Shown piece after piece: positions 4,476 through 15,982 of a stretch of 24,893 nucleotides of DNA. Numbering within the stretch: position 1 is the stretch's first letter; every line of letters begins with the position of its first letter. Source of the DNA: an uncultured Candidatus Peribacteria bacterium (GTDB lineage Bacteria > Patescibacteriota > Gracilibacteria > Peribacterales > Peribacteraceae). The notes beneath the pieces were generated by a model. It did no database searches. It saw only the letters and a program-made list of their open reading frames with translations, and was not told where the DNA came from. Where the stretch lies: NCBI GenBank assembly GCA_964645805.1, contig CAZYBL010000002.1, positions 1-24,893 on the forward strand, read 5' to 3'. The position numbers and the translations under genes were made by a program.

Positions 4476-4746
4476 TTATGACCATATTTTGCATTTATTT
4501 GCCTTTTCATAGATCTCAACATCTTACTTCCTCATAATTGTTCCCCCCATACCTGAAACCATTTTTGTCCCTAGTTTAAGCCAAAAAGTAGATTGAGCAA
4601 AAAGTTTATACAAAATATTGTATTGACGGTGTTTTCTGTCTGACACATTATTAAGTAGCGCCCCACCCACCAACAGCTTCCCACCCCTGGGGGGGAGGGT
4701 GTATCTAGATGTATCGATAACCCCGCATCAACCACCCATCAAAACA

Positions 4747-5766
4747 ATGCTAATCCTCGCCATAGAAACCTCCTGCGACGAAACATCCGCTGCCATCGTA
4801 AAAGATGGACGAAAAGTCCTAAGCAACGTAATTGCAAGCTCAAAAGAAGCATTTTCAAATTCTGGCGGCGTAATCCCTGAGCAAGCAGCAAGACAACAGG
4901 TTAGGTGTGTGCTACCTGTAATCAATCAGGCACTCAAAGAAGCCAACATTACCAAAGATGATATTGACGCAATTGCAGTTACCAAAGGCCCGGGGCTCCT
5001 GGTCTCATTAATAGTAGGAACAACTGTTGCCAGAACTCTTTCCTCCATTTGGAAAAAACCACTGATTGGAATTCACCATACACTCGGTCATCTAAGTTCT
5101 ACATGGCTGGAAGTTGACGAAGAAATCGAGTTTCCAATCATCACCCTTTCTGCATCCGGAGGACATACGGATCTTTGGTTAAGAGAATCTCATACAAAAG
5201 GAAAACTCCTGGGACGAACCAGAGACGATGCAGCAGGTGAGGCTTTTGATAAGGGGGCTCAACTTCTTGGCCTCCCCTACCCCGGTGGTCCGGCAATTTC
5301 CGAAGCCGCAAACAAAGGTAATTTGGATGCATTTGAATTCCCAATTCCCATGCACAATGAAGAGTCACTGGATTTCAGTTTTTCCGGTCTTAAAACATCA
5401 CTCAAATACCTAATTCGTGATCTTGGAAAAGGTGACGATTGTCAATTGTCGAATGTAGCAGCTGCATATCAACATGCAATTTGCAGACATCTTTCTGAAC
5501 GCATAAAACTAGCAGTCAATAATTATCCCGAGATTGAAGAAGTTCATCTAGTCGGAGGAGTATCGGCCAACATTCATCTGCGAAAAATGGTAGAGGATTC
5601 AATTGCTCCGATAAAACTTAGAACACCTGTCAAAACCATCTACTGTACAGACCATGCTGCGATGATTGGAGCTGCTGCATTCTTTTTACATCAAGAAACA
5701 GGTGAGATTGCATTTGAAGAATTTGAGACGGTTGCATCTATGCCACTAAAAGAAGCTCTCATTTAG
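4747..5766 (+). CDS. tsaD: tRNA N6-threonylcarbamoyltransferase
   Basis: MLILAIETSCDETS, GPGL, HHTLGH, ASGGHT, TRDDAAGEAFDK, GLPYPGGP, FSFSGLKT, GGVSAN and CTDHAAMIG. ATG at 4747 preferred over GTG at 4699. Confidence 0.97.
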   Translation: MLILAIETSCDETSAAIVKDGRKVLSNVIASSKEAFSNSGGVIPEQAARQQVRCVLPVINQALKEANITKDDIDAIAVTKGPGLLVSLIVGTTVARTLSSIWKKPLIGIHHTLGHLSSTWLEVDEEIEFPIITLSASGGHTDLWLRESHTKGKLLGRTRDDAAGEAFDKGAQLLGLPYPGGPAISEAANKGNLDAFEFPIPMHNEESLDFSFSGLKTSLKYLIRDLGKGDDCQLSNVAAAYQHAICRHLSERIKLAVNNYPEIEEVHLVGGVSANIHLRKMVEDSIAPIKLRTPVKTIYCTDHAAMIGAAAFFLHQETGEIAFEEFETVASMPLKEALI

Positions 5767-12418: not shown

Positions 12419-12991
12419 ATGAAGGTGTTCACTACTGGACAGGTCGCGAAGATCTGCAAAGTGGCCCCGCGGACGGTCGGCAAGTGGTTCGACTCGGGCC
12501 GACTGAAGGGGTACCGAATCCCCGGCAGCCAAGACCGCCGTATTCCAAGGGAATACCTGATCAAGTTCCTGAAGGAACACGGTATGCCCCTTGGCGACCT
12601 CGAAGACGAGTGTATGGCCAAGGTGCTGCTCGTGGCTCAGGACCAGGTTTTGATCGAGGACCTGAAGCGCGAACTGCCGCCCGAAAGGTCCTTCAAGGTC
12701 GCGGTCGCAGCCAGCGGCTTCGAGTGCGGGATTCAGGCCGAGAGCTTTCACCCGGACTGTATCATCATCGACTTCAGTATCGGGAAGATCGAAGCATTGC
12801 AGATTTGCCAGAATCTGCGCAAGAACATGGACTTCACCGAGACGATCATCGTCGCGCTGCTGCCCGACGACGGCCAACCGATGAGCTTCGATCGGTCCGC
12901 GATCAACGAAACGTTCAAGAAGCCGTTCGACGCGAGGTTGCTCGCGGAGCGCCTACGGACGCTGATCGGCGCGACAAAGGAACTGGTCTGA
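12419..12991 (+). CDS. excisionase/MerR-like HTH + atypical receiver-domain regulator
   Basis: N-terminal FTTGQVAKICKVAPRTVGKWFDSGRLKGYRIPGSQDRRIPRE winged HTH. C-terminal REC-like fold (PDCIIID, FKKPF). GGAGG SD; about 60% GC by eye. Confidence 0.9.
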   Translation: MKVFTTGQVAKICKVAPRTVGKWFDSGRLKGYRIPGSQDRRIPREYLIKFLKEHGMPLGDLEDECMAKVLLVAQDQVLIEDLKRELPPERSFKVAVAASGFECGIQAESFHPDCIIIDFSIGKIEALQICQNLRKNMDFTETIIVALLPDDGQPMSFDRSAINETFKKPFDARLLAERLRTLIGATKELV

Positions 12992-13024
12992 TTCGGGAAT
13001 CTGGCAACCTGAATTGGACAAATC

Positions 13025-13060
13025 AAGCCCTGCTGCAGCCAATGCAACAGGGCTTTTCTT
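13025..13060 (+). terminator. intrinsic terminator
   Basis: AAGCCCTG-c-TGCA-gccaa-TGCA-a-CAGGGCTT followed by TTCTT. Confidence 0.8.
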
Positions 13061-13072
13061 ATATTGTCTGAA

Positions 13073-13153
13073 CCACGGATTACACGGATGGCACGGATTT
13101 CACGGATAACTTTATCAGTGAAATCAGCGTATAAAAAATCAGCGTAATTAGCG
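13073..13153. repeat. 9-nt-period inverted repeat element
   Basis: CACGGAT at 13074, 13083, 13092 and 13101 (exact 9-nt period), then near-complementary ATCAGTG/ATCAGCG/ATCAGCG/ATTAGCG at 13114, 13123, 13138 and 13147. Confidence 0.85.
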
Positions 13154-13161
13154 TCTCACTA

Positions 13162-13189
13162 TTGACATCCAAACTCATTCCACTACAAT
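13162..13189 (+). promoter_or_regulatory. sigma70-type promoter of the Ile-leader operon
   Basis: TTGACA-N16-TACAAT; leader ATG 10 nt downstream. Confidence 0.75.
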
Positions 13190-13199
13190 CCCCACAGAA

Positions 13200-13247
13200 A
13201 TGATCCAGAAATCAATCATTATCAGCATTATTATTAGCCCACGCTAG
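13200..13247 (+). CDS. Ile-rich attenuator leader peptide MIQKSIIISIIISPR
   Basis: 7 Ile in 15 codons, in two runs of three; lies between the promoter and alternative hairpins. Confidence 0.75.
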   Translation: MIQKSIIISIIISPR

Positions 13248-13305
13248 CGCGAGGAGGTAATACTGACTGATAAATTATCACCCCGCGCAAAGCGGGTTTT
13301 TGTTT
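13239..13305 (+). promoter_or_regulatory. transcription attenuator (Ile)
   Basis: 1:2 is CC-a-CGC/GCG-a-GG (13239-13254). The 2:3 antiterminator pairs 13247-13261 with 13274-13288 (13 of 15 pairs). The 3:4 terminator is CCCGC-gcaaa-GCGGG followed by TTTTTGTTT. Confidence 0.75.
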
Positions 13306-13322
13306 ATATTCCCCAAATTACC

Positions 13323-13517
13323 ATGGTAGAAGAAGAAACAGATGTTTGTTTAGATACTGCACCAACGGCAGAAACTGATAAACAACCTTGTAGCACTGAG
13401 GTAGGAAGACTGCGGTCTGAAGCAAAGGGTCAGGTCGTCATTGTAAATGTCTTCCCAGTTCCACCAACCGATTCTGACGCGAATACAGGAGGTTTTTTTG
13501 ATGAATCAGAAATGTAA
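13323..13517 (+). CDS. hypothetical protein (64 aa, acidic)
   Basis: First ATG after the attenuator; no recognisable motif. Confidence 0.45.
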   Translation: MVEEETDVCLDTAPTAETDKQPCSTEVGRLRSEAKGQVVIVNVFPVPPTDSDANTGGFFDESEM

Positions 13518-13551
13518 TCTTTGCTGATTTTATTACTTATTCCCATTTATC

Positions 13552-13968
13552 ATGGCACCCAACGAAAACTTACAACTCAGATTCTCAGGCAATTCGCATG
13601 CTTATTATAAAGTTGATGATAATGGTAGGACTATCGAATTATCTGTACAAAAACCACGTCAAATGACAGATGAAGCTGCAAAAGAAATAAGAACTATGGT
13701 TTTTGAGCCTTTACTAACTCAAATTACTTCATTGCCTCCTAATTCAGATCCTGGCTCTGCTCACTTTACACCAGAGATAAGAGTTAGTTTGCCAGGTGAT
13801 TATACTAGTTTCACTAAATCAGGAAGATGTATTGAAAGAGTTCGTGATGATATTGAAGTTCAATTAAACAATTGCCCTAATGCTAACGGTTCAGCGGAAT
13901 CAGTTCTCGATCCAATCAGGCACAGATTAGATAAATGGTTAAGAGTCACAGAAGCGCTTAATTTATGA
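13552..13968 (+). CDS. hypothetical protein (138 aa)
   Basis: Open frame with host-like composition; no recognisable family. Confidence 0.7.
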   Translation: MAPNENLQLRFSGNSHAYYKVDDNGRTIELSVQKPRQMTDEAAKEIRTMVFEPLLTQITSLPPNSDPGSAHFTPEIRVSLPGDYTSFTKSGRCIERVRDDIEVQLNNCPNANGSAESVLDPIRHRLDKWLRVTEALNL

Positions 13969-14246
13969 AATACTTGGCTTCTATAAGCCATTTATCATAC
14001 CTAGTTGAACAAATATTGTATACAAGAATCACCCCTCATTTGTACACTCTTATTTACATTAATCCCCTTCCCAACTACCCCACTTTCATTCTCTCCAAAT
14101 CCCCATTTCCCCACCCAAAAATCGACCTATTCAAGCTGAACACAAAATTTAGTCAAGTGTAGCCAGAAACCGCTTTGGTAAGCTGTAAAGTCCCTAATCT
14201 ACCCCAAAGATTCTATAGTAATATCGTGAAACAGATATCACATCAA

Positions 14247-14333
14247 ATGCCGATTGAGCTTGTTTGGAGCCACGCTCTGCTGATAGCTTCGTTCACTCTG
14301 ATACTTGTGATGAGTGTGCCGACGATTGGATAA
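14247..14333 (+). CDS. small hydrophobic peptide, 28 aa (not in the ORF track)
   Basis: MPIELVWSHALLIASFTLILVMSVPTIG*; the stop is followed directly by a heptamer array, as for many real genes here. Confidence 0.4.
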   Translation: MPIELVWSHALLIASFTLILVMSVPTIG

Positions 14334-14339
14334 GAATGA

Positions 14340-14418
14340 AGTCAAAGGTCGAAGGTCAAATGTCCAAAGTCTTTCGACTTTTGACTTTTGACCAAACCTC
14401 CGACTTTAGACCTTAGAC
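14340..14418. repeat. inverted heptamer arrays (RGTCRAA)n / (GACTTTT)n
   Basis: AGTCAAA-GGTCGAA-GGTCAAA-TGTCCAA-AGTC, then GACTTTT-GACTTTT-GACC and GACTTTA-GACCTTA-GAC. Confidence 0.85.
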
Positions 14419-14423
14419 ACGTC

Positions 14424-14452
14424 TTGCAATAACCCCCCACCAGGCGTAATCT
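14424..14452 (+). promoter_or_regulatory. sigma70-type promoter of the serA-like leader
   Basis: TTGCAA-N17-TAATCT; GTG 7 nt downstream (leaderless geometry). Confidence 0.55.
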
Positions 14453-14459
14453 CTGTACA

Positions 14460-14519
14460 GTGAACACCGCCTACATCCTCAACTGCTCCCCCATTGCCTC
14501 TTGTACATCAAGAGGGTGA
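14460..14519 (+). CDS. Cys/Ser-containing attenuator leader peptide MNTAYILNCSPIASCTSRG
   Basis: GTG start, 19 codons with C-S and S-C-T-S; the TGA lies inside attenuator segment 2. Confidence 0.65.
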   Translation: MNTAYILNCSPIASCTSRG

Positions 14520-14573
14520 GCTTTTGAACATTTGTAAACAATTTCACCCTCGACAAACGCGCGAGGTTTTTTT
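14497..14573 (+). promoter_or_regulatory. transcription attenuator (Ser/Cys)
   Basis: 1:2 CCTCTTG/CAAGAGG (14497-14503/14509-14515, perfect 7 bp). 2:3 GAGGGTGA/TCACCCTC (14512-14519/14544-14551, perfect 8 bp). 3:4 CCTCG/CGAGG (14548-14552/14562-14566) followed by T7. Confidence 0.8.
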
Positions 14574-14602
14574 ATATTTATTTCCTTTTCCCAAATTACA
14601 TT

Positions 14603-15982
14603 ATGAACAGAGCACCAACATATTTAGGAGACTTGATGGCAGACCCAGATGGTCGGCCACACCAGGACAGCGCACTCATTGTTGCAACTGGCAAAGATAT
14701 GAGTGTACAAGCGATGAGAGATAGATTGGAGAATCTTCCTGTTATAGTAACTGACAACGATGACATGAAACCAACAGACGAACCTGGATTTCAGATAAGT
14801 GTGGCTGCTGTTAGAAGTGAAAATAAATTCCAAAATAATGAAACATTCCAGCTTCACCCCAAACTATTTGGTATAGCACGAGCTGGTAATGGAACAGATA
14901 ATCTCACCTCATCAAAAGATGATCCACCAGAATACCCAGAGGCAGATGCAAACAATGTACTTATTCTTAATGCACCAGAAGGAAGTAGAAATGGAGTTGC
15001 AGAAATGGCATTGGCACATACCTTAACTGCTCTTAAAAATATTTCGCGCTCAACTGATGCCTATCAAGAAAGCGAATGGCTGAGAAAAGATCCGGCAGTT
15101 GCACCAAGAGAAATGCGAGAATTAACTGTTGGAGTATTAGGCTCAGGAGGTATAGGGCAGAAGTTTATGCAAATGTGCGCTGCATTAGGTACAACAGAAT
15201 TTTATCATTATGACAGAGTAACAAAAGGAGACATTCAAGTTGGAACAGATTCATCCGGTAAACCAGTTTATGCAAAACAGAAAGATATTGATTATGTAAT
15301 TGGCAAATGCGATGTGGTTAGTATTCACACCGGAGGAAAAGAGATGCTTATTAGCCCAGACGAGATCGCAAAGATGAAACGGGGAGGAGTCTTGATAAAC
15401 ACATCAAGAGCAAACAACATGGATTATGATGCTGCTTCCCAGGCTGCGATCAAAGGAGATATATTCTTTGGTGTCGACGTTTCTCCTTTTGAAAAGAATG
15501 ATGAAAAATTCGAGGAAGAAACTGTGAAACTGTTACAAGAAGCGGCACGAGCAAACCGTGCAACCATTACTCATCATCAATCTGCAAATAGCCCAATTGC
15601 GAAATCTGAAGTACTTGATGATACGGCAGACAGAATCAGGCATTTGATCGAAATTGGAACCCCATTAGGTGCGAAATTACCCCTAAATCTTCGTAACCCC
15701 AGTGAGGTAAGCATCGGAAGAAGGTCGGAGCCCGGTATTCGTCTAGTTGCAACCCATCCGGACAAAGATGGAGCTCATCATCAAATAACAGGTATTCTAA
15801 CAGACCAACATATCAGCTTCGGAAATTGCATTACAGTTGGTGATGGAAACAACGACAGCAAGATCGCTCAAAGTATTATTGATTTACCAAGTACAGTTAC
15901 CAGCGAAGGTGCAATCAAAGTTATGGAAGAAATAAAACGATTAAATTCTGCTGGCCGTGTCCGGCTTCTTGTCTGGGGTTAA
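14603..15982 (+). CDS. D-isomer 2-hydroxyacid dehydrogenase, SerA (D-3-phosphoglycerate dehydrogenase)-like, with ACT-like C-terminus
   Basis: VRSE, IARAGNGTDNL, NAPEGSRNGVAE, GVLGSGGIG (NAD), CDVVSIH, LINTSRA, GVDVSPFE and THHQSANS. The C-terminal LVATHPDKDG...ITGIL is ACT-like. The protein is divergent, so no symbol is assigned. Confidence 0.8.
   Translation: MNRAPTYLGDLMADPDGRPHQDSALIVATGKDMSVQAMRDRLENLPVIVTDNDDMKPTDEPGFQISVAAVRSENKFQNNETFQLHPKLFGIARAGNGTDNLTSSKDDPPEYPEADANNVLILNAPEGSRNGVAEMALAHTLTALKNISRSTDAYQESEWLRKDPAVAPREMRELTVGVLGSGGIGQKFMQMCAALGTTEFYHYDRVTKGDIQVGTDSSGKPVYAKQKDIDYVIGKCDVVSIHTGGKEMLISPDEIAKMKRGGVLINTSRANNMDYDAASQAAIKGDIFFGVDVSPFEKNDEKFEEETVKLLQEAARANRATITHHQSANSPIAKSEVLDDTADRIRHLIEIGTPLGAKLPLNLRNPSEVSIGRRSEPGIRLVATHPDKDGAHHQITGILTDQHISFGNCITVGDGNNDSKIAQSIIDLPSTVTSEGAIKVMEEIKRLNSAGRVRLLVWG

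Follow-up and report, generated by a model that had tools for sequence, protein, structure and literature searches.

Organisation of the locus

The window, by which we mean the whole stretch of DNA that was analysed, is one entire 24.9-kb contig of a 1.34-Mb genome that is 95% complete (denoted G000 where it is compared with its relatives). A preliminary description of this DNA had attributed it to the CPR, correctly, as the source names of relatives' proteins place the genome in Candidatus Peribacteria/Peribacteraceae within Patescibacteria. The following features make up the locus:

13162..13189, + strand: sigma-70-type promoter, TTGACA, 16-nt spacer and TACAAT, matching the consensus at 11 of 12 positions
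13200..13247, + strand: leader ORF MIQKSIIISIIISPR with stop codon TAG, an ORF kept in 34/34 relatives examined
13219..13273, + strand: predicted 1:2 hairpin (anti-antiterminator), 13219-13235 paired with 13256-13273, -16.8 kcal/mol by folding
13247..13288, + strand: predicted antiterminator (2:3), 13247-13261 paired with 13274-13288, 13 pairs, -15.4 kcal/mol
13282..13305, + strand: predicted intrinsic terminator (3:4), CCCGC-GCAAA-GCGGG followed by TTTTTGTTT, -10.0 kcal/mol
13323..13517, + strand: 64-aa ORF, unsupported as a gene, with no Pfam match and no relative
13552..13968, + strand: probably the regulated gene, encoding a 138-aa protein of unknown function whose homologues lie behind the attenuator

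The first five of these, from the promoter to the terminator, had all been named in the preliminary description and were recovered at these positions. None of the listed RNA runs checked for the locus gave a match; it is contained only in low-depth marine DNA contigs, which are interrupted between 13246 and 13376, and two metatranscriptomes from the same study yielded zero contigs.

Several further features were noted in the surrounding DNA. Between a tRNA-Pro gene and the attenuator lies a gene of 58% GC (12419-12991) encoding an HTH_17 and a receiver domain, which is missing from the syntenic locus of G007, the closest relative; it is not a binning artefact, since an independent Logan contig covers 12200-13246 without mismatch. 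The 9-nt CACGGATNN repeats and their flank at 13055-13125 belong to a multi-copy repeat family, with many copies, often as inverted pairs, in G000, G001, G002 and G006. Downstream, a conserved block at 14136-14333, without a match in Rfam, combines a separate promoter-like site with an sORF that starts at GTG and encodes a hydrophobic peptide of 35 aa (14226-14333, MKQISHQMPIELVWSHALLIASFTLILVMSVPTIG); G007, G179, G184, G021, G193 and G177 encode the same peptide downstream of their attenuator loci. A non-coding RNA was considered for 14105-14333 and rejected in favour of the 35-aa sORF, because the peptide is conserved and every indel is a multiple of three. A SerA-like 2-hydroxyacid dehydrogenase of 459 aa (14603-15982) follows, with no counterpart at the syntenic G007 locus.

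Promoter and leader ORF

The -35 box TTGACA occupies 13162-13167 and the -10 box TACAAT 13184-13189, with the leader ATG 10 nt past the latter. Thirty related promoters were checked; all carry TTGAC at -35, 28 have the 16-nt spacer, and 6-11 nt, with a mode of 10, separate the -10 box from the leader start codon. As the -10 box ends this close to the start codon, the leader message would be leaderless, or nearly so, throughout the family; a 5' UTR of approximately 3-4 nt is predicted for the window, and the family range is 0-5 nt from the predicted 5' end. No Shine-Dalgarno sequence lies upstream of the ATG at 13200, and the near-leaderless start without a Shine-Dalgarno sequence that had been proposed for the window alone proves to be a feature of the whole family.

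The window leader runs from the ATG at 13200 to the TAG at 13245-13247 and comprises 15 codons, seven of them for isoleucine (13203, 13215-13223 and 13227-13235). In the 34 relatives the leaders have 15-20 codons with 3-7 Ile, which makes up 29% of residues and is written with both ATT (94 codons) and ATC (80 codons); by composition isoleucine alone, and not Val or Leu, would be sensed. The remaining two frames of the leader region at the 34 loci encode no more than one Ile and are usually interrupted by stops. Variation within the genus is synonymous at Arg4 (AGA, AGG, CGG or CGA) and Ser5 (TCA, TCC or TCT), and leader indels are multiples of three. What the 34 leaders retain is only their Ile richness and where the stop codon lies, the remaining residues varying freely. 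A short ORF rich in codons for the regulatory amino acid is therefore present in the window and in the 34 relatives, and it behaves as would be expected of a translated sensor, translation being assumed.

Alternative RNA pairings

The 116-nt leader region folds with a z-score of -2.8 against dinucleotide shuffles, and its unconstrained fold consists of a long 1:2 hairpin and a GC-rich terminator hairpin. Segment 1 of the 1:2 hairpin is the run of Ile codons at 13219-13235, and an inner stem (13239-13244 with 13249-13254) forms within it. The 3' strand of the antiterminator includes the 5' arm of the terminator, so that the two helices are mutually exclusive. The terminator hairpin itself (13282-13296, followed by the U-tract TTTTTGTTT) has a stem of just 5 bp; a GC hairpin with a U-tract is found in 33/34 relatives. 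In silico, then, a terminator lies ahead of the structural gene, together with a mutually exclusive antiterminator and an upstream segment that can sequester it.

The effect of a translating ribosome was simulated by barring pairing over an interval that begins 15 nt before the A-site codon and ends 11 nt after it. When Ile codons 8-12 occupy the A site, the antiterminator replaces the terminator in the predicted fold; when the stop codon does so the terminator is back, and the untranslated RNA forms the terminator too. The same sequence of terminator, antiterminator and terminator was obtained for 5/6 members of the genus and for most of seven other genera, the exceptions being G006 and G129, in which stronger terminators persist in the minimum-energy fold. 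The preliminary description had likened the geometry to that of the classical thr/ilv attenuators, with a stalled ribosome freeing segment 2 and a ribosome at the stop codon covering it; the masking folds and the alternative pairings agree with both statements, in so far as such modelling can speak for the RNA.

Compensatory changes between genera are seen in the outer helix of the antiterminator, where GGCG(U)G pairs with CGCGCC, CUGGCG with CGCCAG, UUCGCG with CGCGAA and CUCGGCG with CGCCGAG. The core helix is 92.6% paired over 35 sequences, with GC-to-CG swaps in six. In an alignment of these 35 related sequences, fitted to the covariance model described below, 84% of the cells that should pair do so, compared with 75% in shuffles, and 0/500 shuffles reach the observed value; controls in which the pairing was slid gave 27-51%. 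Duplexes formed with a sequence's own partner were better than those formed with the partner from another genome, with p of 0.023 for 2:3 and 1e-4 for 1:2. As the sequences tested are related, this covariation supports the structure but does not prove it.

The sequence GAGGAGG (13251-13257), at or just past the leader stop, resembles a Shine-Dalgarno motif, and AGGAGG-like motifs are kept at this place in nearly all leaders. It could be supposed that the motif serves a downstream frame, with the hairpins controlling translation by sequestering it, and in the window the 64-aa ORF shares its frame with a CTG at 13263. However, the motif is a strand of the antiterminator, partnered by CCUUCC- or CUCUCC-type sequences, a hairpin with a U-tract is always found downstream, and no conserved start codon or open frame follows it (the frame in G003 is open for only 16 codons). 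We therefore regard control of translation by this route as extremely improbable, and a switch between terminator and antiterminator remains the preferred reading of these pairings.

Conservation across the Peribacteraceae

Composition alone is weak evidence for an element of this kind, because a loose scan of the G000 genome for short ORFs rich in a single amino acid and followed by a T-run yields 118 matches. Conservation, in contrast, appears decisive against a chance origin. A DNA search of 40 relatives identified the 116-nt leader in five further genomes of the genus, none of which carries the 138-aa protein as judged by the same search. At the syntenic locus of G007 the leader is 89% identical to that of the window, compared with 66-76% for the flanking coding genes, and the two sequences differ in the first codons of the leader and in loops. 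A degenerate pattern matched 13/200 genomes of the family, whereas a reversed control pattern matched 0/200, and a covariance model, R1, was built from 13 sequences. R1 has matches in 50/151 Peribacteraceae genomes, representing 31/84 genera, with one copy per genome except for a tandem pair in G059. The element is thus not peculiar to one genome but a conserved leader spread over 31 genera. Among 135 other genomes of the class there was a single R1 match, with leader MTARQIIISIITPSLRGSR, ahead of an HMGL-like gene. No known leader, riboswitch or sRNA family was found in Rfam, either at the gathering threshold or with E up to 10 on 13000-13600.

The second copy in G059 (L121, 975-1080, minus strand) is degenerate, with neither its own promoter nor a canonical start, and sits between a 141-aa orphan ORF and ilvA.

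Genes behind the predicted attenuator

As the preliminary description had proposed, relatives were searched for the leader and for the genes that follow it, and the conserved leader proved to be followed either by cimA or ilvA or by orphans. The genes behind the terminator are distributed as follows:

14 of 34 loci: citramalate synthase or a close HMGL-like gene
8/34 loci: IlvA-like threonine dehydratase, in two of them after an intervening orphan ORF
12/34 loci, window included: orphan ORFs only

2-Oxobutyrate, and through it isoleucine, can be reached by way of either of two entry enzymes, CimA or IlvA, and the frequency of these as targets ties the element to this amino acid. An Ile-branch entry gene lies behind it in 22/34 loci, so that the controlled gene would supply the sensed amino acid there; for the window, whose two ORFs gave no Pfam or fold match, no such role is seen. 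Assignment of cimA was made with TIGR00977, which gave 495 bits in G001, 476 in G002 and 445 in G006, and IlvA was found in G003. The original claim that the targets are not ilv/thr enzymes holds for the window, while in most relatives they are ordinary enzymes of entry into the isoleucine pathway. In a separate scan of genomes for CimA, matches outside the family came only from distant phyla, those from Planctomycetota being the best at 44-47% identity (L035-L114), and no additional leaders were obtained.

The genes of unknown function in the window were both said to be controlled by the attenuator; this stands for the 138-aa ORF and not for that of 64 aa, to which nothing in relatives corresponds. 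Neither has a match in Pfam. An exhaustive search of 1.8 billion representatives returned three homologues of the 138-aa protein, P0018 (40% identity), P0021 and P0022, its remaining matches being spurious hits to repetitive proteins. In G007 a 239-aa ORF aligns with the 138-aa protein over its C-terminal half, for example EIRVSLPGDY against DIRVAFPGKY. The attenuator directly precedes each of the four detectable homologues, which makes five of five lineages when the window is included, and these lineages span approximately 40-60% GC. The attenuators at three metagenomic contigs score 68, 37 and 37 bits with R1 and have the leaders MHPQTAISSIIIIPR, MRSRSAIIGSIIIRRLGARR and (M)KRHNIISSIIIRPRLA. 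At these contigs, L146, L148 and L149, the gene of this family begins 19-22 nt past the U-tract of the terminator, which leaves no room for a second promoter, and no promoter-like site was found between the terminator and the 138-aa gene in the window. Together these associations indicate that the 138-aa ORF is a real gene of a narrow family. Its AlphaFold model, of moderate confidence (pLDDT 68.7, pTM 0.63), has three strands, a helix, four strands and a helix, and Foldseek searches of the PDB and the AFDB clusters gave no fold match, with TM of 0.35 or less.

The ATG of the 64-aa ORF occupies the place that the start of the 138-aa family takes in L146, L148 and L149. This ORF shows no similarity to any ORF of relatives and falls within approximately 229 extra nt that are missing from the other loci of the 138-aa family and are flanked by similar 20-nt junctions (13305-13326 and 13529-13555). 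A similar pyrimidine-rich junction, TTCCC..A.TTA..ATG, occurs three times in the window, at 13305-13326, 13529-13555 and 14577-14602, preceding the 64-aa ORF, the 138-aa ORF and the SerA-like gene, respectively; it may be a motif of the translation-initiation region or the trace of a duplication.

Considering that cimA or ilvA follows the element in most relatives and that G000 has neither gene, the attenuator could be a relic in the lineage of G000 and G007, where unrelated DNA has replaced the original target and the element no longer has an adaptive role. The locus is indeed variable, with the HTH-receiver and SerA-like genes missing in G007, and the orphans of different genera are not detectably related: all-against-all blastp and phmmer comparisons and two profile searches linked only those of G000 with G007 and of G023 with G193. 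Against this, the leader is better conserved between G000 and G007 than the genes around it, with changes confined to loops and N-terminal codons; the 138-aa family keeps its place behind the attenuator in five diverged lineages across this range of GC content; and tblastn with three CimA proteins revealed no remnant of cimA in 13323-14600. A relic is accordingly, in our view, an unlikely explanation, and an attenuator still in use by the 138-aa family is preferred.

A leucine leader and the pathway context

G000 contains a second predicted attenuator, on contig C34 at approximately 4660-4866 (L115), which provides an analogue. Its layout comprises TTGACA, TAGAAT, 12 nt to the ATG, the leader MHKRSLLLGLLELLLTAEGGLRA (4707-4778) and a terminator, followed by leuA, identified as 2-isopropylmalate synthase (NF002086, 509 bits). 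It resembles the isoleucine leader in promoter arrangement and general plan, with MHKRS ahead of a run of the sensed residue, and its switch behaves in the same way in silico, but it would sense leucine and has an ordinary leuA as target.

This analogue also bears on a third alternative, that the element is not a sensor, its product being instead a hydrophobic micro-peptide with a function of its own or a small RNA that ends at the terminator. Promoter, short ORF and terminator do form a self-contained unit of approximately 105 nt, and the core I-I-S-I-I-I is strongly conserved. Conservation of the peptide is nevertheless limited to the Ile richness and stop position noted above, and the hydrophobic core of eight residues is too short for a membrane span. 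Neither a peptide nor a small RNA would account for an antiterminator that overlaps the terminator and covaries, for downstream genes that lack a separate promoter and begin approximately 20 nt past the U-tract, for the linkage to Ile-branch enzymes in 22/34 loci, or for a leucine counterpart placed ahead of leuA. We consider this explanation very unlikely compared with that of a sensor.

CPR/Patescibacteria are described as unable to make most amino acids. The branched-chain genes present in G000 are leuA and a partial ilvD; there is no detectable cimA, ilvA, ilvB, ilvC, leuB, leuC or class IV aminotransferase in this 95% complete genome. In five relatives that are 95-99% complete, ilvB, ilvC and leuC are also missing, and among these G001, G006 and G210 have cimA and the single-contig genome G187 has ilvA. 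The entry enzymes therefore stand alone, as the Peribacteraceae examined that carry attenuator-controlled cimA or ilvA have no detectable ilvB, ilvC or leuC. The genomes considered here are G001, G006, G007, G187, G210 and G000. Because the surrounding pathway is largely missing, the attenuator is not simply feedback on a complete pathway. Peribacteria have been described as making few amino acids (PMC4736985), and G000 and its relatives agree with this.

Proposed mechanism

What the analysis establishes are the elements in the sequence and how they are conserved, the bias in leader codons, the alternative pairings and the association with particular genes; from these we infer where transcription starts, that the leader is translated, that transcription terminates and that the switch responds to isoleucine. 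The element is, with high probability, a classical ribosome-mediated leader-peptide transcription attenuator sensing charged tRNA-Ile, and the downstream genes would most likely be switched on when isoleucine is short. The isoleucine-sensing ribosomal attenuator of the preliminary description thus emerges as the best-supported reading, on the strength of conservation across 31 genera, synonymous Ile, Arg and Ser codons, compensatory changes and the presence of cimA or ilvA at 22/34 loci.

Transcription would begin only a few bases upstream of the leader ATG (13200), and the leader would be translated as a leaderless or nearly leaderless message. With Ile-tRNA plentiful, the ribosome would reach the TAG at 13245 and cover segment 2 (13247-13261), allowing the terminator (13282-13296 and the U-tract) to form and transcription to end. 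Termination is also predicted when the leader is not translated, since segment 1, containing the Ile codons, then pairs with segment 2. When Ile-tRNA is scarce, the ribosome would stall on Ile codons 8-12 and mask segment 1, and the freed segment 2 could pair with 13274-13288, including the 5' arm of the terminator, giving read-through into the downstream genes. The presumed target is the 138-aa family in G000 and its nearest relatives, and cimA or ilvA in most other Peribacteraceae.

A broader proposal would make the element a general sensor of isoleucine starvation that drives single entry enzymes (CimA, IlvA) as well as lineage-specific orphans such as the 138-aa family. In these host-dependent bacteria such proteins could serve scavenging or an exchange of metabolites with the host. 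We offer this tentatively, as a possibility that we consider doubtful. If true, citramalate or 2-oxobutyrate might be exported for a partner to finish, which would be an example of host exchange.

Relation to known attenuators

The mechanism proposed here is a textbook one, and the interest of this solidly supported conserved element lies mainly in the taxon in which it occurs and in its orphan targets. To our knowledge almost nothing is known about nutrient sensing in CPR/Patescibacteria, and the open-access literature yielded no report of leader-peptide attenuation in this group or at citramalate synthase. An isoleucine sensor that can be read from sequence would offer a handle on the genes that uncultured CPR cells switch on when starved, and it flags the orphan 138-aa family and the stand-alone cimA and ilvA genes as candidates for a starvation response. 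As the promoter is near the E. coli consensus, the switch lends itself to a standard reporter assay.

The closest parallels in organisation are the enterobacterial ilvGMEDA (leader ilvL), ilvBN (ivbL) and thr (thrL) attenuators, whose features are well established. Like these, the Peribacteraceae element has a short leader ORF rich in regulatory codons, mutually exclusive 1:2, 2:3 and 3:4 pairings, a terminator before the structural gene and a segment 2 that would be masked by a ribosome at the stop codon. It differs from them in having no sequence or Rfam similarity (E up to 10), in a leader that lacks a Shine-Dalgarno sequence and has a predicted 5' UTR of 0-5 nt, and in its apparent sensing of Ile alone, without Val or Leu. 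Its targets are also different, being single genes (cimA, ilvA or orphans) with the rest of the pathway missing.

Leaderless attenuators are found in the Actinobacteria, where the ilvBNC and leuA leaders of Corynebacterium glutamicum encode leaderless or nearly leaderless leader peptides and control branched-chain genes through a terminator/antiterminator switch. The likeness to the Peribacteraceae element lies in the predicted leaderless start and the classical switch. The element described here belongs to another phylum, and its targets include cimA and orphan proteins.
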